From the NCBI GenBank assembly GCA_030148705.1, contig JASBSY010000024.1, forward strand, positions 21,212 to 85,211: a stretch of 64,000 nt of DNA. Reading direction: 5' to 3'. The notes below the pieces were generated by a model. It was not told the origin of the DNA and searched no databases. It was given only the letters and a program-made list of their open reading frames with translations. Every line of letters starts with the position of its first letter. The first letter of the stretch is position 1. The position numbers and the translations under genes are program-made. Shown piece after piece: positions 14,159-62,253 of the stretch. This stretch comes from Pukyongia sp. (GTDB lineage: Bacteria > Bacteroidota > Bacteroidia > Flavobacteriales > Flavobacteriaceae).

Positions 14159-15811
14159 TCAAACAAACATGGTAACCGGGTTCTCGATATACAGTCGTAA
14201 GGTCTGCAGGAATTTCGCTCCCGTAGCCCCGTCTACCGTACGGTGATCGCATGCCAGGGTTATCGTCATTGTATTACCAACGGCAATGGCACCATTCTTC
14301 ACAACCGGTTTTTGCACTATGGTTCCTACCGAAAGTATGGCCGAATTCGGTTGATTGATAATCGAAGTAAATTCCTTAATCCCGAACATCCCAAGGTTTG
14401 ACACTGTAAATGTACTGCCCTGCATTTCGTCGGGAGTAAGTTTCTTGTTCCTGGCTTTGGTGGCCAGCTCCTTCACCTCGGCTCCTATTTGGGAAAAGGT
14501 CATATTATCGGTAAATTTCAGTACCGGTACCACCAAGCCTTCATCTACGGCCACGGCCACACCTATATGGATGTGTTTTGCTATCCTTGTTACCTTATCG
14601 TCCCACTGGGAATTAACCTGAGGGTGTTTCCTCAACGCCATGGCGCAGGCTTTCACTATCATATCATTAAAGGAGATCTTTACGTCCGGATCGCTGTTTA
14701 TCGCCTCACGAGACGCGATTGCATTATCCATATCCAATTCAACAGTTAGATAGTAATGAGGCGCTGTGAATTTCGATTCGCCAAGTCGCTTTGCGATTGT
14801 CTTACGCATTTGCGAATTGGTTACCTCCTCGAATGATTCGGTTCCAACCGGCACATAGGCAGCGGCTCCTGCTCCCGGCTGGTAATTTTCTATATCCCGT
14901 TTTACGATACGGCCGTTTTCTCCACTTCCGTGCACCGACGAAAGGGAAATACCTTTCTCTTCTGCCAGTTTTTTGGCTAGTGGCGAAGCAAATATGCGAG
15001 CGTCGGAAGGCCTGGAGGATGCCTCCTGGGTCTTCGTAGTTTCTTTAATCTCTTCCTTCTTAGAAGTTTCTTCTTTCTTTTCTTCCGCTTTGGGTTCGGC
15101 AGGTTTCTCTTGCTTTTCCTTCTTAGGGGCCGCGAGGCTTAGGTTCGACACATCGGTGCCTTCCGGACCGATAATTGCCAAAAGTGCATCTACCTTGGCT
15201 GTTTCTCCTTCGGCAATTCCTATTTTCAACAAGGTTCCCGAATAGAAGGATTCGAACTCCATGGTGGCCTTATCGGTTTCGATCTCGGCCAGAATATCCC
15301 CTTCAGAGACCTTGTCGCCTTCCTTCTTAAGCCAGGAGGCCACCGTTCCTTCTTCCATGGTATCACTTAGTCGGGGCATGGTAATAATCTCAACGCCTTC
15401 GGGCATTGATTCAGACTCTTCTTCATCGGTGTTGTCCTTATCTCCTGACTTATTCTCTTCGGAATCGTTTTCAGTTTTCTTTTCAGCAGCTTCTTCCTTA
15501 GCTTTTTTGGTAGAATCACTGCTTTTTTCTTCCTTAGGCTCTCCTTCCTGTAACAATTCGGAAATATCTTCACCTTCTTCTCCTATAATCGCCAATAGTT
15601 TGTCTACCGCAGCCGTTTCACCTTCTTCTATTCCGATATGCAGGAGCGTACCTTCATAAAAAGATTCGAACTCCATGGTGGCTTTATCAGTTTCGATCTC
15701 GGCCAGAATATCTCCTTCGGAAACCTTATCTCCAACTTTTTTAAGCCAGCTGGCTACCGTTCCCTCTTCCATGGTATCGCTGAGGCGTGGCATTGTTATA
15801 ATTTCAGCCAT
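14159..15811 (-). CDS. pdhC: Pyruvate dehydrogenase E2 with two lipoyl domains
   Basis: Two EIETDKATME lipoyl motifs, ASPLAKKLA, DHRTVDG. Confidence 0.96.
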   Translation of the reverse strand: MAEIITMPRLSDTMEEGTVASWLKKVGDKVSEGDILAEIETDKATMEFESFYEGTLLHIGIEEGETAAVDKLLAIIGEEGEDISELLQEGEPKEEKSSDSTKKAKEEAAEKKTENDSEENKSGDKDNTDEEESESMPEGVEIITMPRLSDTMEEGTVASWLKKEGDKVSEGDILAEIETDKATMEFESFYSGTLLKIGIAEGETAKVDALLAIIGPEGTDVSNLSLAAPKKEKQEKPAEPKAEEKKEETSKKEEIKETTKTQEASSRPSDARIFASPLAKKLAEEKGISLSSVHGSGENGRIVKRDIENYQPGAGAAAYVPVGTESFEEVTNSQMRKTIAKRLGESKFTAPHYYLTVELDMDNAIASREAINSDPDVKISFNDMIVKACAMALRKHPQVNSQWDDKVTRIAKHIHIGVAVAVDEGLVVPVLKFTDNMTFSQIGAEVKELATKARNKKLTPDEMQGSTFTVSNLGMFGIKEFTSIINQPNSAILSVGTIVQKPVVKNGAIAVGNTMTITLACDHRTVDGATGAKFLQTLRLYIENPVTMFV

Positions 15812-28247: not shown

Positions 28248-28322
28248 GGGCGCTTAGCTCAGTTGGTTCAGAGCACTTGGTTTACACCCAAGGGGTCGGG
28301 GGTTCGAATCCCTCAGCGCCCA
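28248..28322 (+). tRNA. tRNA-Val(TAC), prophage integration target
   Basis: Full cloverleaf; anticodon arm CTTGG-TTTACAC-CCAAG. Confidence 0.97.
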
Positions 28323-28324
28323 CA
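28280..28324 (+). repeat. attL core (3' half of tRNA-Val)
   Basis: GTTTACACCCAAGGGGTCGGGGGTTCGAATCCCTCAGCGCCCACA, identical to 62209-62253. Confidence 0.96.
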
Positions 28325-28416: not shown

Positions 28417-28450
28417 ATTGTACGTACTATTGTACGTAAATTGTACGATT
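28417..28450 (+). repeat. Three ATTGTACG repeats, putative integrase arm sites
   Basis: Copies at 28417, 28429 and 28440; the same motif recurs at 62128-62149 near attR. Confidence 0.7.
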
Positions 28451-29654
28451 GAAAGCTTCAGTTAAATTATTTACTTCAGATGGGGAAACCTCGCAGGGCT
28501 TTCCGGTGAAATTGGTGGTGTCTCATAAAGGGAAAACGCTGCGGCGGACCCTTGGGTATAGTCCGCTGGTTTATTGGGACTCGCTTCGGGGTAAACCTAC
28601 CCCTTCGCACCCGGATTATGAATCGCTTTATGGCCAGATGCTGGATATTGAAAAGAAAGCGTTAACCGCTCAGTTTCGCAATTCTACCGATGTGAACCTG
28701 GCTTTAAATGATCTGCTCGATGTGCCTGAAGCCAGGGATATTCCCCTGGAGTCGTATTTTAAAAAACAGATTTCCCTTATGCGTTCGCAGGGACGGCCGG
28801 GAAATGCCGATGCGTATGTCGCGGTGATGAATCAAATGGAATATTATTCACCGGGGTTGCTTTTAAGTGATATTGATGGGGTTTTATTGGAGCGGTTTAA
28901 ACGATATAAATTGAAAAGCTGTAGCGATAAGACGGTTAAAAATTACCTGGGTGTGCTCCGGGCACTCTATAATAAAGCGCTGGTGGATCCGGATGTGAAT
29001 CTAATGGATAAAGAGCCGTTTAAAGGTGTTATGACCGGGCTTATGGTAAAGCGAAGGCGGAAGAAAAACCGTTATTTGCTGCTAAAAGATATACAGCGAT
29101 TGGATGCGTTGTTCCACTCCAATAATCTTACACGAACTGAAAAGCGGGTGGTTGGATTGAGCTTGCTTCAGTTTTATTTGGGCGGCCTTAATCTGGTGGA
29201 TCTGTATTATTTAAAACGCTCTGCCTTTTATAAAGACAGGATCCTGCTATCCCGGAAAAAACTTGGTCGGTATGCGGAAGAATACGATGTGAGAGTGTTT
29301 CCTGTGGCGCGCGCGATTTTTGATTTTTTTGAAAAGGACCCTACTTATATCTTCCCATGGCGAAAAGATGAGCTGGGTTATAAAACCTTCAGAAGAAACC
29401 ATTACAGATCACTTTTAGCACTTCAGCAAAGACATCAAATTGAGTTACACCCAGTGGATGTAAGGCTTAATATTAATGCCTTTAGGCATACATTTGCCAC
29501 CCTGGGGAAGTTTGCCGGGGTGGACCCGGACATCATTAGGGAATTAATGGGCCACGAACGAAATGATATCGATACCGTTTATAAGGACCGGTATCCCGAA
29601 TCAGTAAGGGATGCAGCTCATGGTAAAATTATTGGAATTGGAACAGAGAAGTGA
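28449..29654 (+). CDS. int: Tyrosine integrase
   Basis: N-terminal arm-binding region, SAM-like core, NAFRHTFAT..ELMGH..TVY; adjacent to attL; TTG start. Confidence 0.92.
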   Translation: MKASVKLFTSDGETSQGFPVKLVVSHKGKTLRRTLGYSPLVYWDSLRGKPTPSHPDYESLYGQMLDIEKKALTAQFRNSTDVNLALNDLLDVPEARDIPLESYFKKQISLMRSQGRPGNADAYVAVMNQMEYYSPGLLLSDIDGVLLERFKRYKLKSCSDKTVKNYLGVLRALYNKALVDPDVNLMDKEPFKGVMTGLMVKRRRKKNRYLLLKDIQRLDALFHSNNLTRTEKRVVGLSLLQFYLGGLNLVDLYYLKRSAFYKDRILLSRKKLGRYAEEYDVRVFPVARAIFDFFEKDPTYIFPWRKDELGYKTFRRNHYRSLLALQQRHQIELHPVDVRLNINAFRHTFATLGKFAGVDPDIIRELMGHERNDIDTVYKDRYPESVRDAAHGKIIGIGTEK

Positions 29655-34783: not shown

Positions 34784-34876
34784 AAAAGTTTGATCTTATG
34801 ATAAGCGAAACATCGCCTGTAAATCAAAATTTTTGTGTGTCATTATTTTTTAAGGGGGGGTATCAATAGTAATGTT

Positions 34877-35326
34877 ATGAAAGTAGTAGGAAAAGGAAAT
34901 GGAAATCTAGTTAAGTCGGACCTGGTTAAGAAGGTCCCTGGTGCACCGCGGTTTTTTACTCCGCGAGCAAAGACGACGTATAAAAGATTGGGTAATATTT
35001 TAATCGAGGCCGGTGTGCTAAAATCCCGCCACTTACCTACTCTTGAAATTCTAGCACAGAATTATGATCAGTGGCAAAGTGCGATCATGGCAATAAATAA
35101 AGCCAACCGGAAAAAGGCTATGAGTGGTTACATCCAAAAGTTTACCACCGGTGCCACGAACATCTCCCCGGAGGTGACTCTAAAAGAAAAAGCTGAGAAA
35201 CAAATTTTTATTTGCCTGAAGCGCTTCGGCTTGGATCCGAAGAGCGAGAAAGAACTCGATGCCGGAAATCAACTCCAGCTCCCGTTTACACTGGATGATA
35301 TTCTAAGCAACAAGCGAGCAGTATAG
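34877..35326 (+). CDS. terS: Terminase small subunit (P27-like)
   Basis: Follows HNH; C-terminal RFGLDPKSEKEL motif. Confidence 0.8.
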   Translation: MKVVGKGNGNLVKSDLVKKVPGAPRFFTPRAKTTYKRLGNILIEAGVLKSRHLPTLEILAQNYDQWQSAIMAINKANRKKAMSGYIQKFTTGATNISPEVTLKEKAEKQIFICLKRFGLDPKSEKELDAGNQLQLPFTLDDILSNKRAV

Positions 35327-35386: not shown

Positions 35387-35899
35387 ATGAAATCAAAGGT
35401 AACACTAATTTTATTCCTATTCTCTTTAGGGGTATCAGCACAATTCAATAACGACGAAGATCTTACCGCGTCAGTATTTATCGATCCCACCTTCACAGAT
35501 GCCGGCTTTCAGTTTGGTGTCCAGCTTCGAAAAGAACTACTTTGGGGATGGACCGGAATTGAGGCATCTCATTACGGATCCTTAAATCCATCTTACACAG
35601 ACCTGGTAGGAAGCGGCGGAATGGCATTTGAGTTTAAACCAGTAACAATTCTCTTAGGTCCCAGGGCTGGAGTTTTATTCAGAGAACGATCACCTTATCC
35701 GCTTGTAGGATTGATTACAAATATCGAATTACAGATCAGTCAAAAAATCCGAGTGGGCTTTCGTTTATGGGTGGACCATCGCGAAGATCAGAAAGATCAG
35801 TTTTATGGTGACAGCGATGGATATGAACCGGGGATAATTTTCACTGGTCCGCTCGCTCAGGAAAATGGCGCGGCAGTATTAACCTGGATAATTCAATAA
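35387..35899 (+). CDS. Exported, beta-strand-rich (outer-membrane-like) moron protein
   Basis: Signal peptide MKSKVTLILFLFSLGVSA; alternating amphipathic strands. Confidence 0.6.
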   Translation: MKSKVTLILFLFSLGVSAQFNNDEDLTASVFIDPTFTDAGFQFGVQLRKELLWGWTGIEASHYGSLNPSYTDLVGSGGMAFEFKPVTILLGPRAGVLFRERSPYPLVGLITNIELQISQKIRVGFRLWVDHREDQKDQFYGDSDGYEPGIIFTGPLAQENGAAVLTWIIQ

Positions 35900-35926
35900 A
35901 ACACTCCTGAAAAAGAAATACAAAAA

Positions 35927-36547
35927 ATGGTTTTTGGATACGCGCGAGTAAGTACATCAGCACAAAAATTACAAATGCAAATAGACGCTTTGGAAGCATA
36001 CGGAATCGATACAAAAAACATCTTCACTGATGTAGCATCGGGAGCAAAATCCGACCGGCCCGGCCTTTCAGAATTGCTTATGAAACTACGTGAAGGAGAT
36101 ACGGTTGTGGTATGGAAGAGCTGCCGATTGGCCCGAAGCTTAAAACACATGATCACATTAATGGAGAATTTCAATTCCTTAAAGATCGAATTCAAGAGCA
36201 TCCAGGAACCATTCCTGGATACGAAGTCTGCTAATGGCCGCTTTATCTTCAATCTGTTTTCGGCACTCAACGAAATGGACCGGGAGATTAACCGCGAGCG
36301 AGTGATCACCGGATTAGAGGCCGCGCGTAAACGCGGTAAAGTAGGTGGCCGTCCAAAGGGACTGAGTAAAAGACTGCGGGATATATCTCCAGGTGTAGCT
36401 AGTATGTGGAAGGACCCTAACGCGTCTATCAATGATATAAAACGAATATTCGGCATCGCTCAGGCTTCGGTTTACAAGTGTGTGAGGTACCAGGGAATTA
36501 ATATCCATTCTATGGATCATAAGAATAAAGTCAAACGATCAAAGTGA
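35927..36547 (+). CDS. Small serine recombinase (resolvase/invertase)
   Basis: FGYARVST catalytic Ser, DRPGL, RLARSL, C-terminal HTH. Confidence 0.95.
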   Translation: MVFGYARVSTSAQKLQMQIDALEAYGIDTKNIFTDVASGAKSDRPGLSELLMKLREGDTVVVWKSCRLARSLKHMITLMENFNSLKIEFKSIQEPFLDTKSANGRFIFNLFSALNEMDREINRERVITGLEAARKRGKVGGRPKGLSKRLRDISPGVASMWKDPNASINDIKRIFGIAQASVYKCVRYQGINIHSMDHKNKVKRSK

Positions 36548-36550
36548 ATT

Positions 36551-38647
36551 ATGAATTTACAAGTAAATGAAATACCGGAAAACTGGAATCCAGGATGTGT
36601 AAAGTCATTTAATCGATGGGTCTCACGCATCCACAATCACGAAAAACGGCGATATGGTATTCCTATTCGAATCAGTAAAAACAAACAGTAATTAACGGCT
36701 ACGGCCATAAATCATAAAACAATGGAAGAATTAAAAGCGATTGAAAAAGAGCAACCCCAACATTTAGAAATGGCTAAAGAGGTGGCTGAGACATTAATTA
36801 ACACTTGTTCAAGCGAGCAGCAAGCAGAATTTTTAACGTTTGTTCAGAAAGTTATTGATGAAGATTATTGCAACAGGATTGCACGCTGTGAAAAAGAACT
36901 TGCTGTCATAAAAATGGAACACAACAGGTTTTTAGGGAATCCGAATAAACCACAAGAACCTTATTCAAACTAATTGTAGGATATGAGTGATCCACAGATA
37001 AGAGGTAGGTGTATTTCTACTGGGAAAATAATTATTAATTCTCAGGTGACTCAGATCGGAAACAGGATAAACAATGCCGACTGGATTTCCGAAAGAACAG
37101 GATGGTATAAAACAAAACAGTAATTAAGATGAAACCATATCCAAACCACAAATCATTGACATTCGACAAGGAAGCTCAGAATAACCTTCCACAAGAAATC
37201 AAAGACAAAATGAGAAACGACATGCAAGAAGCAAGATTATTCGACTATCTCTCGAAAGAAATTTCGGAAGGAAAAACAGAATTTAGAATCGCCATGCAAT
37301 CTAAAGATGAAGGCATTATACACCCATTAGGGAAGGATGGCAATACATACGATTTTAAAATTATTGACAAAGGAACTTTCCTTTCGTCATCTAAATAAAT
37401 AGTAGCTATTGAGGCTACGTAAAATCAAACGATATGAAACAACTTACAGAACAACAGGCAATTAATTTCGCTAATAGCGAAGAATGGAAGGAATGGACAG
37501 ACGAACAAATTGTAAGGCTACAATTATTCCAAAAAAGACTTTGCGTTCCATTTTCAAGATTTCAAGAAGCTATGACGAAAGTTTTAGGGCGATCCATTTG
37601 GACACACGAATTTACGACGTCGAACCATGATAATTTAGTTCAAGAATATTTAGGAACAAAGCCAGCTCCTTCATTTGAAGAAATTGTAAATCTAATACCC
37701 GAAGAAAAGAGGGTGATATTAAACCTGTAGTATGAGTTGGTATATAATCATGGAAAAGCATCCTGGGGGTAAATGGGAAGATCGTACAGATCCAGACAAT
37801 CATTGGCCGTCTATGAAAATTAAAATGCAGAAAATGAAAAAGGATAGACCAGAAAGTGAATTTAGAATAGTAAAAACGAACTATTAATACTGTAGGTAAT
37901 GGCAATGACACTATTAGGAGATATGAAGCTATCGCATAACATTCTCGATTTTTTAGGATTTGAGTTTGAAAAAGGTGGGTGTAAGTATTTTAAAGTCGAA
38001 TTAGATGCGAAAGGTTGGGCTTTAGTTTGGTGTGAAAGCCTGAAAGATTACTTCATTGAACCTAAATTTCAACCAACATCAAGAATAAGAGTAAGCACGG
38101 TCGATAAATTACACGCTGCTTACATTTTAATAACTGACAAAAATTTTAATCTGTAGAAATCATGGAAAATCAAAAATACAGACTAACGAAGCTAAGCGAT
38201 GATAGGTTTGATGGCCTTCATCCAAACGGAATCAATAAAGGGTATACAAAGAATGGAAACCGTATTCACCCTGAAAAGCCAACCAAAGGAAAAATCTTTT
38301 GGCTCGACAACATGAACACTTCAGTTGTTACCGAGGAAATGAACGATGATGGAATTTTTAAAACTCGAAATTCAACATACAAACTGGAAATACTGTAGAA
38401 TATGGCGCACCATTGTTATATATGTAATTCCGAATGCTATTGCAACGGCAGTATTGATGATGTAATAGTAGATAAGACACCTTCAAATTGTGAAGGATGC
38501 GGATGTGAAGATATGTTTTATGATGAAGATGAACATTTTGATCGATGCGAAGATTGTGACGGACACGATGCGTGTTTAGATTTTGGATGTGCATTTGAAA
38601 ACGGCTGCGGTCATTTAGTAGTAACAGATCCGGCTAAGAGTTGGTAA
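36551..38647 (+). other. Nine small co-oriented ORFs (36551-36691, 36722-36973, 36983-37123, 37129-37398, 37434-37730, 37732-37887, 37899-38156, 38162-38398, 38402-38647)
   Basis: ORF track plus hand translation; each ends at a CWGTAR-type motif. Confidence 0.75.
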
Positions 38648-38663
38648 TTAATAACTGTAGTTA

Positions 38664-39557
38664 GTGAACCACGGATCATTATTTAGCGGAATTGGAGGTT
38701 TTGACCTGGCGGCAGAATGGATGGGGTGGGAGAATGTATTTCACTGTGAATGGAATGAGTTTGGCCAACGAGTTCTTAAATATTACTGGCCTAATGCAAT
38801 AAGTTATGACGACATTACAAAAACAGATTTCACTATTCACCGAGGATCAATCGACATCCTTACGGGAGGATTCCCCTGCCAACCATACAGCACCGCAGGA
38901 AAACGAAAAGGAAAAGAAGATGATCGCCACCTCTGGCCGGAAATGCTTAGAGCGATTCGAGAGATTGCCCCAAAGTACGTTGTGGGCGAAAACGTTTCTG
39001 GGCTACTTAGTTGGAACGGGGGGCTGGTATTCGAAGAGGTGCAAGCTGACCTGGAAGCTGAAGGGTACGAAGTACAACCGGTCCTACTTCCAGCTTGCGG
39101 CATCGGTGCGCCCCACAAAAGAGAAAGAGTATGGTTTGTTGCCTACTCCCCAAGCAATAGATGGAAAAGGGAAGGGAAGAAAATTGAGAATGAAAACCGG
39201 AAATCGGGATCCTCAGAAATTGGGAAATTGGAGGGGGGATTTAAAAGATTGGGCGAATCAAGGATTATTGCCAACTCCGAGCGCAAGCGACAATCGGGAT
39301 CGGGGCGGGCCGACGAACCCCTGCGTACAAAAACGGATTCAGAATGGAAAGCAAGTTGGGCTTACGATGATGATAGATGGCCAACTCAATCCCCGGTTTG
39401 TAGCAGAGATGATGGGATTTCCAGAGAATTGGACGGAATTACCTTTTCTAAATGGTTACAAGGATCAATTTCAGGATATGGAAACGCAATAGTACCGGAA
39501 TTGGCATTTGAATTATTTAAAGCAATAGAACAAACAAAATATTCATTAAACCTGTGA
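38664..39557 (+). CDS. C5-cytosine DNA methyltransferase, main polypeptide
   Basis: Motifs I SLFSGIGGFD, IV GGFPCQ, VI ENV, VIII HKRERVW and X GNAIVP; motif IX is absent. Confidence 0.9.
   Translation: MNHGSLFSGIGGFDLAAEWMGWENVFHCEWNEFGQRVLKYYWPNAISYDDITKTDFTIHRGSIDILTGGFPCQPYSTAGKRKGKEDDRHLWPEMLRAIREIAPKYVVGENVSGLLSWNGGLVFEEVQADLEAEGYEVQPVLLPACGIGAPHKRERVWFVAYSPSNRWKREGKKIENENRKSGSSEIGKLEGGFKRLGESRIIANSERKRQSGSGRADEPLRTKTDSEWKASWAYDDDRWPTQSPVCSRDDGISRELDGITFSKWLQGSISGYGNAIVPELAFELFKAIEQTKYSLNL
38806..39492 (+). CDS. Overlapping +1-frame polypeptide carrying methyltransferase motif IX
   Basis: 228-aa nested ORF with LLPTP repeats and QLNPRFVAEMMGFPENWT. Confidence 0.75.
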   Translation: MTTLQKQISLFTEDQSTSLREDSPANHTAPQENEKEKKMIATSGRKCLERFERLPQSTLWAKTFLGYLVGTGGWYSKRCKLTWKLKGTKYNRSYFQLAASVRPTKEKEYGLLPTPQAIDGKGKGRKLRMKTGNRDPQKLGNWRGDLKDWANQGLLPTPSASDNRDRGGPTNPCVQKRIQNGKQVGLTMMIDGQLNPRFVAEMMGFPENWTELPFLNGYKDQFQDMETQ

Positions 39558-39559
39558 TT

Positions 39560-39870
39560 ATGTATAATGTATCATTTACAACAAAGCTAAAAGGGGAGCT
39601 GGTTGAAGAAGGATTTACAACTTCTCTATCTCCTAATATTGAAGATGCACTTCATCATTTTTCAGACGAAACTGATTTTGCTGATATAGATGAAATTGAA
39701 CTAAGGATCAATCCTTTAAATCTGTAATTAACGTACAATCAAACGATATGAAAAAATGTGAAAATTGTAATAAAGAAAAAGTGGGTGTGAGGTTTTTAGG
39801 TAAAGACATTTGTATGGCTTGCTACAACAGAATTACTGGAGCGATTAAACCACTAACTCAAAAACAGTAG
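39560..39870 (+). other. Two small ORFs (39560-39727, 55 aa; 39748-39870, 40 aa with CxxC..CxxC)
   Basis: Hand translation; both end in the CWGTAR motif. Confidence 0.6.
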
Positions 39871-39873
39871 GAT

Positions 39874-40314
39874 ATGAAAAAATCGGGATATTATGGAATT
39901 GGAGCATTGAATATGAAAACAAGCCAAAATTATGGTACGTTGTTCCGTACGGCCCAAATTCTTAATGCTGATTTTATTTTTCTGATTGGATGTCGATTTA
40001 AAAAGCAGGCAACGGACACTATGAAATCGTGGCGACATATTCCCCTTTTTGAATATGTGGACTTTGAAGATTTTAATAAGCACCGCCCACATGATTGTAA
40101 ACTTGTCGGCATCGAAATGACAGAGACTGCGATCCCAATTAAGGAATTTAAACATCCAAAACAAGCATGCTATTTGCTTGGTGCGGAGGATAGTGGGCTA
40201 ACTAAAGAGGCTGTCAAAAATTGCCAGGAGATAATATTTCTTCCTGGAGAACGAAGTATGAATGTGTCAGTAGCAGGAAGTATTGTGCTATTCGACCGCA
40301 TAAACAAACAGTAG
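39874..40314 (+). CDS. SpoU/TrmH-family (SPOUT) RNA methyltransferase
   Basis: NYGTLFRTA, LLGAEDSGL and SMNVSVAGSIVLF motifs. Confidence 0.88.
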   Translation: MKKSGYYGIGALNMKTSQNYGTLFRTAQILNADFIFLIGCRFKKQATDTMKSWRHIPLFEYVDFEDFNKHRPHDCKLVGIEMTETAIPIKEFKHPKQACYLLGAEDSGLTKEAVKNCQEIIFLPGERSMNVSVAGSIVLFDRINKQ

Positions 40315-40317
40315 GTA

Positions 40318-41309
40318 ATGTACTATAAGGCTGTAAAATGTGATTGTTGCAATGCAATTGAAATTGTTAGTCCGGCAAAACCGATTAACCTTTCAAGAGA
40401 TACAACTTTAAAAACCCTGGGCTGGATAACCCGGATGAATGGTAGGGCTGTTCTCGACTTTTGCAGTAAGAAGTGCGAAGAAATTTATAATCAAAAACAG
40501 TAGGTTAAATAGCGGATCCTGCTAATTAAGAAATCCGCTGAAAACTTAAATAAATCAAACACAATGAGAACTGCTATTTATACACAGGTTGGGCTAACTA
40601 TTGGATTGGTTATTAATGTGTTCTTTAAAGTAACTGAAATAAATGAAGCTGTTTTCATTTATATACTTTTAACGATGGGCTACTTTCTTGCCTTTTTTCA
40701 ATTTCGAAAAAAGATAAAAAATAAATTAACCAAAAACCACCCACCAATGACCGAAGAACAGATCCGCCAGCTGGGCTTTCAACTTGAAAAGCACTATACC
40801 CACGATGAATGGGAAACCTTCCGCTATAAAAAAGGAGTAATTCAGATTGAATTCACCTATGAAATTAAAAGCGGAAAGATTGATACAGTCGATGTAACCA
40901 TCGACGAAGTGATCGGAAAAGAAATGGGTTTTACGAACTTGCTTAAACTAGATCGAATTCTAAATTAATAAACAAATGCGACATCTATCCCAACGCGAAA
41001 AGCATGAAATAACCAGACATCAAAAAGAAGCCTACGAAGCGTATCTTTTAATGTGCGCGTCTCTTAATGAAGTGCCCAGGCCCGACATCGTAATTCTGAT
41101 AAGCGGATGTACAGTACGGAATCGACTTATAGAATCCACCGAAATATTTAAATCGAAAACTAACATTAACCCGGAAACATAAAATGAAATCAACCCGAAC
41201 CTGCAAACACAAGCGAACCATCCCTAGTAAACTGAATACCGGATATGTAATGTGCCTAAACTGCCTTAAAGTAGTACATCGGGAAACCGGAAAATTACTC
41301 CCGCGATGA
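40318..41309 (+). other. Four small ORFs (40318-40503, 40564-40968, 40976-41182, 41184-41309)
   Basis: ORF track plus hand translation. Confidence 0.6.
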
Positions 41310-41329: not shown

Positions 41330-43111
41330 ATGAAGCCTACTAAAGAAATGACATCCTCAACCCCATGGACCTACGCTAACAATGTGCGAAGCGGAAAGAT
41401 CGCGTGCGGAAATTTCATAAAATTAGCAATAGAACGCTTTTACCGATGGGTGGATAATGCCGAGGCAGATGGATATTACATCGATCACGATGCCGGGATG
41501 CGCATAATAGAATTCTTTCCTAAACTCATTAATCACACAAAAGGAAGCATGGCCGGGAAGCCCTTTCACCTGGCACCCTTTCAGCAATTCACTTTATACA
41601 ATCTTTTCGCCTGGAAAAATAAAGAAACCGGCCTGCGGCGAATTAAAAAAGTGTACGATAAACGTGCAAAGAAGAACGGAAAATCGGCAGAGATGGCTGG
41701 GCTTAGTTTGTACGTAATGGCGGCCGATAACGAATATGAAGCCGAAGTATATGTGGGTGCCACTAAAGAGGACCAGGCGAAGATCTGTCACAACCAGGCA
41801 AAACAATTTATAGAATCCCCGGTGGCCAACCCGCTTCTTAAAGCGATAGGATTCAGTACCCGGCTCCGGGAAATCCGCTTCGAAGGAACCGCCAGTAAGA
41901 TGATGCCGCTGGGTGGAGATAGTAAAACCCAGGATGGAATCAATTCGCACGTATCCATTATAGACGAATACCACGCGCATAAGGACGATACGGTAAAAGA
42001 AAACCTGGAGAGTAGTAGTATTCAGCGCCGGCAACCCATCACCTATCACATCACCACTGCCGGGTTCAATACCCAGAGCGTGTGTTATAACTATGAGCAG
42101 GTGTGTAAGGATGTATTGCTGGGCACCAAAGAAGAGAACGACAGCTTGTGGATAATGATCCATGAACTCGATGAGGGTGATGATTGGCAGGATCCCGATA
42201 ATTGGATAAAAGCCAACCCCTTACTTCATAACGGATTGAGCCTGAAACGGCTAATGGAAGAGTATAACGATGCTATCCTTCAGCCCAGTAAACAGAATAA
42301 TTTTAAAACAAAGCACCTCAATATGTGGGTGGACGCTCCCGATGTGTTTATCTCGGATGAAGACTGGATGCGTAATTCTGAAAAGGTCCGTATCGAGAAC
42401 TTTATAAAATACGGATGCGAAGGAGCCATCGACCTGAGTACAACCACCGACCTTACCTCGCTGGGGTTTATTTCGTATCCGGACGATGAAGGGGTGCAGG
42501 ATTTGTTGGTGTTTAACTTTTGTCCTAAAGAAACAATCGACCAGCGGTCTAAAGCCGACAGGGTGCCGTACCGCTTTTGGAGCGAACAGAAGTATGCAGA
42601 CTTTATTACAGTTCCTAAAGAACTGGAAGATGAATTCGCGCACCTGCTTAACGATGTACCGCTTTTGGTGGCCACTCCGGGAAATGTGGTGGACTATAAT
42701 GTATTCGAAGATTATGCGGTATCCTATGCAAAACAACTTACAGCAAAGACGGTGAATTACGACCGGCACAACAGCACGCAGCTTATCACTAATATCGAAG
42801 AGGCCGGGGTAAAATGTATGCAGTTTGCGCAAACGATAATCTATTACAGCTATCCTACAAAGGAATTCGAAAAGCTGGCATTAAGCGGGAAATTGAGGCA
42901 TGGCGGAAATCCGGTATTGCGATGGTGCTTATCCGGCTGTGGGATCTACCGGGATCCAAATGAGAATATCCGGCTCAGTAAAAAGCACAGCTCAAAACGC
43001 ATCGATCCGTTAATTGCATCGGTGATGGCGTTGGCCGGGGTGCTCAATGTGGAGGAGCCCGAAAGAAAACAGAGTGTATATAACGACCCAAATAAAGAAT
43101 TCTATGCCTGA
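41330..43111 (+). CDS. terL: Terminase large subunit
   Basis: Walker A KKNGKS, IIDEYHAH, ITTAG, GAIDLS and RIDP motifs. Confidence 0.95.
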   Translation: MKPTKEMTSSTPWTYANNVRSGKIACGNFIKLAIERFYRWVDNAEADGYYIDHDAGMRIIEFFPKLINHTKGSMAGKPFHLAPFQQFTLYNLFAWKNKETGLRRIKKVYDKRAKKNGKSAEMAGLSLYVMAADNEYEAEVYVGATKEDQAKICHNQAKQFIESPVANPLLKAIGFSTRLREIRFEGTASKMMPLGGDSKTQDGINSHVSIIDEYHAHKDDTVKENLESSSIQRRQPITYHITTAGFNTQSVCYNYEQVCKDVLLGTKEENDSLWIMIHELDEGDDWQDPDNWIKANPLLHNGLSLKRLMEEYNDAILQPSKQNNFKTKHLNMWVDAPDVFISDEDWMRNSEKVRIENFIKYGCEGAIDLSTTTDLTSLGFISYPDDEGVQDLLVFNFCPKETIDQRSKADRVPYRFWSEQKYADFITVPKELEDEFAHLLNDVPLLVATPGNVVDYNVFEDYAVSYAKQLTAKTVNYDRHNSTQLITNIEEAGVKCMQFAQTIIYYSYPTKEFEKLALSGKLRHGGNPVLRWCLSGCGIYRDPNENIRLSKKHSSKRIDPLIASVMALAGVLNVEEPERKQSVYNDPNKEFYA

Positions 43112-44063: not shown

Positions 44064-45710
44064 ATGAAATCAACGTCCGAACAATCGCAATCAGAAACTA
44101 AGCTATGCCCTATGTGCGGTGTTAGTGGGGGTGCTTTTTTAGCCTTTATTAGAATTGATTACGAAGGTATATATGAAGGCAGTATAAAGTTATTTAAAAG
44201 CAAAACAGCAGCAGATAAATATATCAGTGAGTTAAAGAAAGAAAATGGTGGTGATTCGGTGACTTATGATATTGTAGAGTTGCATTTTCACTAACGGACG
44301 AGTGTATGAATAGTTTTATTATTAAAAACCAAAATTTAATAGATATGATTAAAATAACATTTGAGAACCAAACCGTAGCAATTTCTAAAGACTTGCTAAA
44401 TGACGAAATTATTGATATAGACTTTAACGGTGATATGATGGTGCAATTTAAAAAAGAGAACAATAACACATATACTGCTGTAAATGGTATGAATGGTTGG
44501 GGTCAAAATATAGCTTCTGAAATTGCGGGCAAAAAAGCCACAATCTCCGAATAATAAAATTATTTATACACATTGTTACCTGACGAAGTGAACAGTTTAA
44601 AATACTATTTATTATGAAAAAATGGACTAAAGAAGAAGAGCAAGAATTAGTGAGGCTTACTGAAAATGCGTGGGATTGGAATTTCCCAGGTTATGACTGG
44701 GTAAGAACTCTTTTAGAAGTTGATTACCCGAACGGTCGAACCGTTAACGCAATTAGGAAGAAGTACTATAGTATTTTAAATTGCAGGTAACGTGCCCCGT
44801 GTATGCGGACGTAGCCGATTTAAAAACTAATGTTTAACCTATAAAATACAACTTGATATGAAAACTGAAACTTTAAATACTGCCGAAACTAAGGCTATGT
44901 CGTATGACACGGTGTTAGCAACTGGCTTTGGCGAAGATGATTATGTAGAGGGAGTGTTTCTTATTAAAGCAAAAGCAAAGGAAACTTTCTTTAACCGAAA
45001 AAGAAGGCTTGAAGAAATCACTGGCTTTTCAGATGGTTTTTTTGATTCCTACGAAGAGGATGAAGAAGGTGGAGTTTGGAAAGTGATAACAACAGCTTGG
45101 TTTGAAAATGTTGACGAAATCAAAAAAGCTCTGAAAAAGATGGAAAAGTATAACTGGTTATTTCAGTACGATTCATCTATACTTTTTGAGGGCAAAGAAA
45201 TTTACTGTGATGGCAGGTGGCTTGTTTAAGCTTGTTGCTAACGGTTTGGTTATGCTTCCGTTGTGAGTAAAATCCGCAGGATTTTCCGAGTAGGAAGCTA
45301 CCAAACCAAGAATAGAATTAGATTGAATTATTAACAAAAAAGCAATGGAGTATAACCGTTGTTGTAAAACGTTTTTTAGCAATGCCCAAAACAAACACAA
45401 AATTACGATTAAAAGCTATTTTAAAATGGAATAAAGAAACTGTTTATGTTGAACCAATTTTATTTAGTTGGCACGTTGGTATACAATATAAAGTATTAAC
45501 TGGTAATAGTTCTGGTTCTTTATTTTGCAGGAAAAGAAGTGATTTTATTTTTCCTTTACAAACTAAAATAGCAATGCTTATTGTAAAAGCCTATTATTGG
45601 ATTTATGAAGGTGGTTATTGGCAAGGTAGAAGGAAAATAAAAACACGTATAAAAAGGTATAAATTAAGACATAATGAAGGTGATTTACCTTTCTAAATGT
45701 TTTACAACGT
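44064..45710 (+). mobile_element. Integron-like cassette array (attC cluster without integron integrase)
   Basis: attC-like hairpins at 44289-44581, 44784-44920 and 45234-45367; cassette-end complementarity; genes 44064-44294, 44345-44554, 44614-44790, 44858-45229 and 45382-45696. Confidence 0.85.
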
Positions 45711-52216: not shown

Positions 52217-52289
52217 CGCGGCATGGAGCAGTTGGCAGCTCGCCTGCTTGCTTTGCAGGAGGTCACAGGTTCGAATCCTGTTGCCGCTA
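52217..52289 (+). tRNA. Atypical tRNA-like element: fMet-type body, GCT anticodon, short variable loop
   Basis: Perfect cloverleaf CGCGGCA/TG/GAGC-AGTTGGCA-GCTC/G/CCTGC-TTGCTTT-GCAGG/AGGTC/ACAGG-TTCGAAT-CCTGT/TGCCGCT/A. Confidence 0.9.
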
Positions 52290-52320
52290 CTAGAAGTATA
52301 ATTTAAAAGGGAATTGCCGA

Positions 52321-54606
52321 AGCGCGAGTTTAAGTAAAATAAACATTAAGTTTCATGCAGATCTGAAAGAATTCTCTTCTCAGATGCAGAATGCGGAGCG
52401 CTCCATGCAGAAGTTCGGGAAGAAACTGCGGGGTGCGGGCGCGGCACTTTCGGTAGGACTTACAGCACCTATTGTGGCTCTTGGCGCAAAAGGTGTTTTT
52501 GCTTTCGACCAGCAGGCAAAAGCCATCGCCCAAGTGGAAGCCGGTATAAAAAGTACCGGTGGCGCTGCCGGAAAAACGGCAACCGAACTAACAAAAATGG
52601 CCGCTTCCTTACAGGGAAGTACGCTCTTTGGCGACGAAGAGATATTAAAAGACGTTACAGCACAGCTTCTTACATTCACAAACATTGCAGGGACTCAGTT
52701 CGACAGGACCCAAAAGGCTGTACTAGATCTGGCCACCCGCCTCGATGGTGACTTGAAAAGCGCCTCCATACAATTAGGAAAAGCCCTTAACGATCCTGTG
52801 GCTAATTTAAGCGCCTTGTCCCGGTCCGGGATTCAATTCTCCACAGACCAGAAAAAGGTAATAAAATCCCTGGTAGAAACCGGGCGAATTGCCGAGGCGC
52901 AAACAGTTATACTCGATGAACTTGAAAAGCAATATGGCGGAGCTGCCGAAGCAGCCGCAAAGGCAGGATTAGGTCCGTTTAAACAGCTGGGTAATGCCCT
53001 GGGGGATCTTACCGAAGATTTTGGAAAGATCATCGTGGAAGCCCTGCTTCCGTTCGTGGAAAAACTAAAGTCGGTTGTATCGTCGCTTCAAAACCTCGAT
53101 GACGGTACAAAGAAAACCATTGCGATAGTCGCGGGATTTGCCGCTGCTTTAGGCCCGATATTGTTTACAATAGGATACCTGGCCACCAATGTTATTCCCG
53201 GATTGATCGTTGCTTTAAAAGCGCTTCAGCTGGCTATTATGACCAATCCGATAGGTGCTTTAGCCACTACGGTAACTGTATTTGCCGGAGCGGTATTGCT
53301 CGCAAATACCCGCCTTACATCACTTACCGATGCAAATAAAGAGTTTGCAAACCTGAGCGCACAGGCCGGGCGAAGTATTGCGGCCGAAAAGGTGGCGCTG
53401 GATAACCTTATCCGCACAGCTAACAATGAGCGTATAAGTAAAGAAAAGCGCCTCGATGCTATAAAAGAACTTAATCGAGTTGTTCCACAATATAACGGTG
53501 AGCTCACTCTTGAAACATTAAATACAGATAAGGCGCGTGAGGCCACTGATAAGTATGTTCAGAGTTTATTGTTAAAGGCTAAAGTACAGGCCGCTCAGGA
53601 AAAATTGGTTGAAGTAGAAAGACAGCTGCTCGATCTTATGCTTGGACAATCGGAAGCGGCAGATCCTTCCTTCTGGCAAAACCTGGGTAACGCGGTTACC
53701 TCCTTCGGAAGCCAGTCGGCTTATATGGGTAAAACCCTGGAGACGGTTGTGGATAATATGCAGGAGGAAGAAAAACAACTTACCTCGCTTCAGAAAAAAT
53801 TACTCGGCTTCCTTCAGTCCAATCAGGATGTGGTAGATGGTCTTAAAGGACAGGAAACTACCCTGGCCGATGTGGGGGCTCAGGGGGATCAAACAAGGAA
53901 ATCGCTCACAAAGCTTACCGGGGTGATGAATACCATGTTCGTGGATAACGAACCAACTGAGTTATATACCTGGGTGGATGCAATGAACCAGGTGGGGGCT
54001 GCGGCTAATAAGCTTATCCCCACACTAACAAAGGCACAACAGACAGCCGGGGCGGTAGCGGCATCCATCAACGAACAGGTGGGTCCTGCTATACAGGATG
54101 CGGCGGCCACCATCGCTTCGGGATTTGGTAAGATATTGGCGGGGTTCGCAACCGGGACCAGCGGCCTTCGGGATATTGCGAACCTTATTATTGGCACCCT
54201 GGGAGATCTTATGATCCGCCTGGGTGAGATTGCTATTCAGGCGGGAATTGGTATCCAGGCAATTAAGGCTGCCTTCGAAAGCTTAAACCCTGCTGTGGCT
54301 ATTGCCGCCGGTATTGCCCTTATTGCGTTTGGTTCGCTTATTAAATCGGCAATACAATCTGCACCGCCGGATGTTGCCCTGGCTCAGGGTGGATTGGTAC
54401 GCGGGGAAACCCTTGCTTTAATTGGGGATAACCGTAATGCTGCCTTCGATCCGGAAGTGGTTGCACCCCTGAGTAAGCTACGAGACTTTATAAATCCTAA
54501 CCAGGGCGCCGGCGGGGTCGATGTGCATATAAGCGGAAAGCTTGAAGGAAACGACCTGAAGCTTGTTATCGACAGGCAAATAGAAAGAAAGATTCGGTTA
54601 AAATGA
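52321..54606 (+). CDS. Tail tape measure protein (ORF track start 52384; open extension from AGC at 52321)
   Basis: Ala/Gly-rich helical protein, QLGKALNDP motif; in-frame extension ASLSKINIKFHADLKEFSSQ has no ATG/GTG/TTG. Confidence 0.9.
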   Translation, partial: SASLSKINIKFHADLKEFSSQMQNAERSMQKFGKKLRGAGAALSVGLTAPIVALGAKGVFAFDQQAKAIAQVEAGIKSTGGAAGKTATELTKMAASLQGSTLFGDEEILKDVTAQLLTFTNIAGTQFDRTQKAVLDLATRLDGDLKSASIQLGKALNDPVANLSALSRSGIQFSTDQKKVIKSLVETGRIAEAQTVILDELEKQYGGAAEAAAKAGLGPFKQLGNALGDLTEDFGKIIVEALLPFVEKLKSVVSSLQNLDDGTKKTIAIVAGFAAALGPILFTIGYLATNVIPGLIVALKALQLAIMTNPIGALATTVTVFAGAVLLANTRLTSLTDANKEFANLSAQAGRSIAAEKVALDNLIRTANNERISKEKRLDAIKELNRVVPQYNGELTLETLNTDKAREATDKYVQSLLLKAKVQAAQEKLVEVERQLLDLMLGQSEAADPSFWQNLGNAVTSFGSQSAYMGKTLETVVDNMQEEEKQLTSLQKKLLGFLQSNQDVVDGLKGQETTLADVGAQGDQTRKSLTKLTGVMNTMFVDNEPTELYTWVDAMNQVGAAANKLIPTLTKAQQTAGAVAASINEQVGPAIQDAAATIASGFGKILAGFATGTSGLRDIANLIIGTLGDLMIRLGEIAIQAGIGIQAIKAAFESLNPAVAIAAGIALIAFGSLIKSAIQSAPPDVALAQGGLVRGETLALIGDNRNAAFDPEVVAPLSKLRDFINPNQGAGGVDVHISGKLEGNDLKLVIDRQIERKIRLK

Positions 54607-62208: not shown

Positions 62209-62253
62209 GTTTACACCCAAGGGGTCGGGGGTTCGAATCCCTCAGCGCCCACA
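62209..62253 (+). repeat. attR core (displaced 3' half of tRNA-Val)
   Basis: Identical to 28280-28324; followed by the host hairpin AATCCCGGTT...AACCGGGATT. Confidence 0.96.

Follow-up and report, generated by a model that had tools for sequence, protein, structure and literature searches.

A serine recombinase-headed array of small genes joined at a shared gene-end motif in phages of Flavobacteriaceae: a candidate integron-like gene-capture platform

In a 64,000-nt stretch of DNA from Pukyongia sp. (contig JASBSY010000024.1; hereafter the window, meaning this whole stretch), a prophage carries a small serine recombinase gene followed by 14 consecutive plus-strand genes (36551-40503), all of which stop in, at or no more than 5 nt from the motif AAnCWGTAR, and the same motif joins largely different genes behind related recombinases in other phages. 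Based on these findings, we propose a phage-borne array that exchanges one-gene cassettes at the site WWAAAAC-W-GT-AG-WTAA, probably through the linked recombinase, and from the sequence comparisons we give this proposal about an even chance. In its fuller form, to which we commit ourselves slightly more tentatively, the array would be an integron-like gene-capture platform of phages that uses a small serine recombinase and a linear site of about 16 bp which also terminates each open reading frame (ORF), with some recombinase subclades possibly using other sites. The host range of the array would be the temperate phages of Flavobacteriaceae.

The 14 nine-mers reported by the initial annotation at the ends of these genes all proved correct in position and sequence, and the gene ends agree with the ORF list. 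In 10 genes the motif supplies the stop codon, either as its TAR or as TGA, directly after a last sense codon that is CAG (five genes) or CTG (five genes); among the 1244 internal codons of the block the joint share of these two is 1.5%, and the probability of finding them at the end of at least 10 of 14 genes is 6.5e-16. The window has 65 other ORFs of 60 aa or more, and not one of them ends in CWG or shows the motif near its stop, even in a relaxed form. The pattern WAHCWGTAR, in which the motif was originally written, has 15 plus-strand matches in the 64 kb, of which 10 fall within the 4 kb of the array; these ten comprise nine of the annotated sites and one internal match at 36670, and the other five of the 14 sites lie outside this strict pattern. 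Four genes had been described as already stopped before the motif, and the stop does precede the motif end in all of them, but in three (sites 36971, 37397 and 37887) the TAA overlaps the motif 5′ edge, and in the fourth (site 38652) the stop lies 5 nt upstream; taken by themselves, the four therefore argue less strongly for a nucleic-acid site than was first assumed. The array begins 4 nt after the recombinase stop codon, the block is AT-rich (GC 38-40% against 43.4% for the window) and the 14 products are without detectable mutual similarity, all as first described. An AT-rich block, together with the A-rich gene ends common in Bacteroidota, might suggest chance, a codon or stop-context bias, or paralogous ends left by tandem duplication; however, with a probability of about 7e-16 for the terminal CWG codons, 0 of 65 other genes affected, unrelated products and recurrence in eight lineages with unrelated genes, this group of explanations retains almost no probability, and chance is excluded.

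Scans of IMG/VR and the JGI metagenomes with a single recombinase sequence gave best matches of 68-69% identity (L094, and L023, which spans only 1.4 kb; L numbers denote our loci) and no arrays, which at first spoke against a link between recombinase and motif. The link emerged only with a larger protein collection, in which recombinases are 64-72% identical to that of the window and several end in -KQ or -KL; further loci came from the contigs of these proteins and from a profile-based scan of genomes and viral contigs. Eight lineages were found to carry the module, namely the window with its 84% nucleotide relative L108; the related prophage L111; L109; L112 and L113, both from Tenacibaculum; L114, which equals L120, a Kordia prophage; L115 with L118, from one Tenacibaculum assembly; and L124. 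In each of them a run of co-directional genes linked by this motif lies behind the recombinase gene, and in L111, L109, L113, L114 and L124 the recombinase ORF already terminates within the motif or at its 5′ edge. The lineage recombinases are 55-72% identical to that of the window and 51-86% identical to each other, yet the genes downstream are almost all different between separate lineages. Over 31 sites in nine loci the consensus is that of the proposed site, and its core C, G and T never vary. Of 82 stops downstream of clade recombinases, 27 have the strict 8-mer AHCWGTAR nearby, versus 19 of 2229 background gene ends, taken from all fetched loci outside the arrays (Fisher p = 1.7e-29), and this background rate of 0.85% is about the rough base-composition expectation; the enrichment at the array's gene ends that the initial annotation had anticipated is thus borne out both in the window and across the fetched loci. 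The position of the module differs among phage backbones, as it lies between terS and terL in the window, between terL and portal in L111, after a methyltransferase gene in L109 and near the integrase end in L124. Co-occurrence in eight lineages therefore supports the recombinase link, and within our sample the comparison shows an exclusive association of the motif with this recombinase clade.

Gain and loss of genes at the motif, as predicted for cassettes, was found between related elements: the recombinase and the motif are kept, the genes nearly all differ, and breakpoints and single-gene indels fall at the motif. Homology between the window and L108 (84% over 1871 nt) ends at 36693, that is, at the first motif, and past this breakpoint L108 has a different gene, itself ending in AATCTGTAG. 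L115 and L118 have recombinases 99% identical and a 205-aa gene in common; two single genes, of 73 aa and 74 aa and each flanked by motif copies, are present in L118 but not in L115. At the junctions of this pair, the upstream half of the motif goes with the upstream unit and the downstream half with the downstream unit, a pattern that puts the exchange no more than a few bases from C-W-GT. Within the 73-aa unit missing in L115 (L118 8674-8895), a segment of about 60 nt is duplicated in tandem. Among L111, L109, L112 and L113, nucleotide homology of the recombinase gene stops 10-30 nt before the recombinase stop codon. As far as aligned sequences can tell, these comparisons show that the site marks where units are gained, lost and replaced, while recombinase and site stay constant.

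The gene heading the array (35927-36547, plus strand) encodes a small serine recombinase of the resolvase/invertase type (206 aa; PF00239, E = 9.5e-42; PHROG 'DNA invertase'). Its nearest solved structures are the Gin invertase (4m6f, 3uj3) and gamma-delta resolvase, the match to the latter pairing query residues 2-187 with residues 3-180 of the 183-residue chain and including the C-terminal DNA-binding region, and S9, R7, R67 and R70 are invariant in the alignment of 16 clade members. By sequence and structure matches, the catalytic serine, the conserved arginines and the C-terminal DNA-binding domain of a small serine recombinase are thus all present. In INPHARED, the best protein match to the clade recombinase was 40% identical and no cultured phage with the module was found, and a DNA search with the block matched the methyltransferase gene only.

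We propose that the linked recombinase would perform conservative site-specific recombination at the site, the likeliest crossover point being the invariant central GT, with circular one-gene cassettes being inserted and excised there. The best dyad centre in the aligned sites is this GT (AACW-GT-AGTT), and the inner motif resembles AAACC-NN-GGTTT, the inner part of hix and gix sites. Because the site, with the extended core T-TAA-AAC-WG-TAG, holds stops in two frames, TAA in its left part and TAG in its right part, it usually supplies the last codons and the stop of a unit. The units, apparently promoter-less, would be transcribed as one by read-through from upstream, and the tight stop-start spacing would yield translational coupling. 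A hairpin behind the last unit closes the array. Catalysis, circular intermediates, the exact crossover point and co-transcription are what we infer from these patterns; hence, of the cassette reading first put forward, gene exchange and the recombinase link are supported by the comparison, while cutting at the motif by the recombinase stays at the level of a prediction. Enzyme and junction site may co-vary by recombinase subclade: in L116 (7989-12100), with a recombinase 55% identical to that of the window, genes are joined by AATAACGGTnGA(n)ATG, seen four times, and the motif was not seen.

Several points weigh against cassette exchange by the recombinase. Known small serine recombinases act on sites of 24-30 bp, built of two inverted 12-bp half-sites that flank a 2-bp centre; as a rule they depend on an enhancer or accessory sites, and they react preferentially within one molecule. 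The site described here has about 16 bp conserved and weak dyad symmetry, with an inner-four score of 2.0 of 4 and 3-4 symmetric positions per arm. The window recombinase has neither the terminal motif nor the Lys-rich tail of its relatives, the L108 recombinase is split into two ORFs, and the recombinase region of L094 is read as two short ORFs with no array. Phage mosaic breakpoints lie at gene boundaries anyway, so that breakpoints at a junction motif are partly expected. The motif-coded residues of the SpoU and DUF7736 genes (KQ and NL) also end some homologues outside such arrays, so the motif can arise from native sequence and not from recombination. Furthermore, the stop lies within or overlaps the motif at 13 of the 14 ORFs, which would also fit a translation-linked function.

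The main rival, a serious one though less likely than not, is a junction expression signal for stop, restart or mRNA handling that doubles as a short homology for general, relaxed homologous or microhomology-mediated recombination, like the promoter-early stem-loop (PeSL) motifs of T4-like phages. The recombinase would then simply be the conserved gene at the head of the operon, occupied with a different task, for example resolving multimers, inverting DNA elsewhere or mobilizing the module as a whole. The tight spacing (1-5 nt from stop to start at 10 of 14 junctions), the stops inside or overlapping the motif, the short and weakly symmetric site and the KQ and NL ends that may stem from native C-termini are all in its favour, as is conservation beyond 9 nt, since junction repeats of 15-28 nt extend into the start codon and first codons of the next gene. 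PeSL-mediated shuffling offers a precedent: a PeSL is a composite of a terminator stem-loop and an early promoter between ORFs (PMC2839356, PMC4122927). As in the arrays, this short repeat flanks small ORFs of unknown function in a hyperplastic phage region and bounds indels and replacements, as does the motif at the window/L108 breakpoint and the two L115/L118 indels. However, PeSLs act by homologous recombination without a dedicated enzyme, whereas here a specific recombinase is always linked, being the sole protein that always travels with the motif; most junctions here have no promoter or stem-loop and the motif overlaps the coding end; and a repeat of 9-16 nt would be a poor substrate for homologous recombination. 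Scans for sigma-70-type promoters and intrinsic terminators over 34.5-41.5 kb gave counts at or below those of shuffled controls, with none common to the junctions, and folding of 45 nt on either side of each junction gave no common fold, no consistently unpaired motif and no shared accessibility pattern. The motif is also absent from other operons of the same phage and host, and a coupling signal would be needed only before a close restart, whereas the motif is kept after the last array gene, at the array ends of L109 and L112, ahead of long spacers in the window (20-30 nt after sites 36683, 37397 and 39719) and when apart from the stop, up to 17 nt downstream (1-17 nt in related loci). Inverted repeats were sought in the tail-fibre and lysis region (54-62.7 kb) as a possible recombinase target, and nothing convincing was found. 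Two further ideas were rejected, namely a Kozak-like A-rich leader or anti-Shine-Dalgarno pairing, as the conserved bases lie off the positions known for such signals and the motif occurs independently of start codons, and recoding of TAG or readthrough fusion, as the frame is kept at only 6 of the 10 close junctions and suppressor tRNAs are absent.

An RNA-only role, in which the motif is an endoribonuclease cleavage site or a termination-reinitiation element and gene turnover is ordinary mosaicism, appears improbable. All copies are in sense orientation, one at each ORF 3′ end including the last, with none ahead of the first array gene, as such a role would have it; UAG and CAG are preferred A-site cleavage codons of RelE-type toxins. 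On the other hand, the lack of a conserved structure and of a consistently unpaired motif argues against it, no nuclease is conserved with the arrays, and if a host enzyme were responsible, host operons should have the motif too, but they lack it. An RNA-only role also leaves unexplained the motif on unrelated incoming genes and the motif-bounded indels. The RNA-processing or coupling signal that the initial annotation offered as its alternative is therefore weakened, by the motif after the last array gene and by the absence of an RNase conserved with it, but it still stands.

The proposed cassette array resembles integrons and CALINs (clusters of attC sites) in that a recombinase gene stands beside a co-directional array of mostly single-ORF, apparently promoter-less units, with a site at the 3′ end of each unit, methyltransferases in the cargo and a content that turns over fast between related platforms. 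CALINs have been reported in phage genomes, including that of a Polaribacter phage (PMC9892861). However, it has neither of two defining integron features, IntI and attC. Integrons employ the tyrosine recombinase IntI, encoded divergently, whereas the gene adjacent to this array is a co-directional small serine recombinase (PF00239), and the prophage has one identified tyrosine recombinase, its integrase (28449-29654); the site here is a linear motif of about 16 bp that usually supplies the stop, with no attC hairpin, and no attI or Pc was identified. In an integron array each ORF is followed by an attC hairpin of the form R''-L''...L'-R', 57-141 nt in length. The absence of such hairpins, already remarked on from the sequence, is confirmed by the lack of RYYYAAC/GTTRRRY pairs in 36551-40503, by the tight spacing of most junctions and by the lack of a common fold around them.

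Hin, Gin and Cin, the gamma-delta/Tn3 resolvases and Mpi belong to the same enzyme family as the array recombinase (PF00239), and the Bacteroides Mpi invertase is a serine recombinase of Bacteroidota that acts on many short sites. Those enzymes, in contrast, invert or resolve between two sites of 24-30 bp (paired inverted sites for Mpi) with an enhancer or accessory sites, and to our knowledge no invertase or resolvase builds arrays of direct-repeat sites separating unrelated genes. The window recombinase scores 47 bits with the NCBIfam Mpi model against a cut-off of 272 and is therefore not an Mpi member. In the staphylococcal cassette chromosome (SCC), the serine recombinases CcrAB and CcrC likewise insert tandem cassettes at a short direct repeat, but these enzymes belong to the large serine type and move elements of tens of kilobases at a single chromosomal attB, the units are not single genes and the setting is not a phage; the window recombinase stays far under the cut-offs of the Ccr models. 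In the searchable literature, no paper on serine-recombinase cassette arrays was found, and if recombinase-dependent exchange holds, this is arguably a new kind of system.

The 14 units, all on the plus strand, can be followed one by one. Cassettes 1 (36551-36691) and 3 (36983-37123), of 46 aa each, both end in AAACAGTAA as their stop (36683-36691 and 37115-37123), and the junction of cassette 3 includes a 20-nt repeat 90% identical to that at 36676. Between them, cassette 2 (83 aa, 36722-36973) has TAATTGTAG at 36971-36979, its stop being the TAA at the motif 5′ edge. Cassette 4 (89 aa, 37129-37398) is followed by the weak motif AAATAGTAG (37397-37405), whose GTAGC pairs with GCTAC in a small hairpin (37402-37418); GTAGC...GCTAC also follows the motif in L111 and L112. 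Cassette 5 (98 aa, 37434-37730), a DUF7736 protein (PF24875), stops in AACCTGTAG (37722-37730), and its homologue in L106 (68% identical) ends in AATCTGTAAttaATG, while the homologues in L103-L105 end without the motif. Cassette 6 (51 aa, 37732-37887) has a stop TAA overlapping the first base of ATACTGTAG (37887-37895), with a junction repeat; cassette 7 (85 aa, 37899-38156) stops in AATCTGTAG (38148-38156), cassette 8 (78 aa, 38162-38398) in ATACTGTAG (38390-38398), and the Cys-rich cassette 9 (81 aa, 38402-38647) precedes TAACTGTAG (38652-38660), which lies 3 nt ahead of the next start. No relatives of cassettes 4, 7 and 8 were found in IMG/VR. Cassette 10 (297 aa, 38664-39557) encodes a C-5 cytosine DNA methyltransferase (PF00145, E = 1e-46; TIGR00675) and stops in AACCTGTGA (39549-39557); a 228-aa ORF in another frame within it (38806-39492) is probably spurious, because the methyltransferase frame has conserved motifs at both ends.

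Cassette 11 (39560-39727, 55 aa from the ATG at 39560) stops in AATCTGTAA (39719-39727), followed by TTAACG, and a related junction in L111, AACCTGTAATTAACG, has CTGTAATTAACG in common with it. The last three units all stop in AAACAGTAG: cassette 12 (40 aa, CxxC...CxxC, 39748-39870; motif 39862-39870), cassette 13 (146 aa, 39874-40314; motif 40306-40314) and cassette 14 (61 aa, 40318-40503; motif 40495-40503). Cassette 13 is a SpoU-type RNA 2′-O-methyltransferase (PF00588), with homologues of 60-81% identity in six unrelated viral contigs, within arrays that use a different junction. In the DNA of L002-L004, similarity does not reach beyond the SpoU gene and the sequence right beside it. The C-termini of the homologues are longer, while that in the window is trimmed and ends in the motif; judged by this comparison, the SpoU gene is a travelling unit. 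Behind the perfect motif copy of cassette 14, no gene follows for 60 nt, and a plus-strand hairpin (AGCGGAT...ATCCGCT, 40511-40539) with no T-run closes the array and may be a terminator. Additionally, the long spacers contain a plus-strand leader repeat, ACGTAAAATCAAACGATATG (37417-37442), with a 92% identical copy at 39731-39756 and weaker copies near 36700 and 40548.

The array lies in a 34-kb siphovirus-type prophage integrated at tRNA-Val(TAC) in the host DNA of the window, the host being a marine bacterium of the Flavobacteriaceae. A 45-bp direct repeat covering the 3′ part of this tRNA gene (28280-28324 and 62209-62253) bounds a prophage of about 33.9 kb, with the integrase gene just within the left end and then, in order, DnaB (33052), HNH (34469), terS (34835-35326), terL (41330-43111; both named by PHROG matches), portal, protease, capsid and tail genes. 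Between terS and terL, an accessory block of about 6 kb (35387-41309, plus strand) holds a 170-aa signal-peptide protein, the recombinase, the 14-gene array, the hairpin and three further small genes. In phages with a TerL 70-72% identical, Terminase_4 (terS) adjoins TerL (L010, L013-L015) or is separated from it by one gene (L008), and since the block is absent from these related phages it is an insertion. TerL relatives were also searched in IMG/VR and in GTDB genomes, with one distant match in the former and none in the latter. The 170-aa protein (35387-35899), between terS and the recombinase, has an N-terminus that resembles a signal peptide and matches no family; L108 has a version 84% identical, and the other recombinase loci lack it. 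Within the tail module, a tRNA-Ser(GCT) gene (52217-52290) is flanked by a 110-aa ORF on one side and the probable tape-measure gene (52384-54606) on the other, L010 has about 74% nucleotide similarity to the window over 52226-52304, and an Rfam scan of the window found tRNAs only.

Other junction styles occur nearby. The second variable region of the prophage, from terL to portal (44286-45310), uses the junction (GC)TAACGG...GT(G)TATG, which is also found in L002 (2300-6100), L003 (6480-11300), L004 (1340-1970) and L010 (2680-2750). In L002, L003, L010 and the window (45243-45307), this junction is the 5′ arm of an imperfect hairpin of 60-130 nt, and in L002 and L003 the 3′ arm ends in GTTATGC or GTTAGGC, which gives it an attC-like look. 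L003 and L004 have only the SpoU unit in common (92.6% over 525 nt), and homology breaks right after GCATAAC; no serine recombinase lies within the fetched 16 kb. A third style occurs in L005 (9000-11700), a SpoU-bearing viral contig, where a run of small genes has overlapping ATGA stop/start codons in an (A/C)AAAATGA context, such as AATCAAAATGA, so that the A-rich leader of each gene limits how the protein encoded before it can end. L003 also carries a permuted tmRNA (15550-15778; Rfam, 73 bits against a gathering score of 47).

The identified cargo of the related arrays includes SieB-like superinfection-exclusion proteins in two lineages, a PAPS-reductase-family protein (these entries at L112 10037-10399 and L124 9398-10033 and 7654-8448) and a Dam methyltransferase in L111. 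Together with the DNA and RNA methyltransferases, such cargo fits phage accessory or (anti-)defence functions and suggests that the arrays hold defence and counter-defence genes. How phages gain and swap such small genes is largely unexplained beyond mosaicism at gene boundaries, and a cassette platform of the kind proposed here would supply a mechanism; the findings point to a previously undescribed route by which phages collect and swap accessory genes. If the proposal is true, cassette capture would have been invented a second time, independently, and would reside in viruses, and integron-like capture would not be bound to tyrosine recombinases and folded attC sites. The motif would then also serve as a sequence signature to find and delimit the accessory genes of Flavobacteriaceae phages, and the compact pair of recombinase and site could become a tool.

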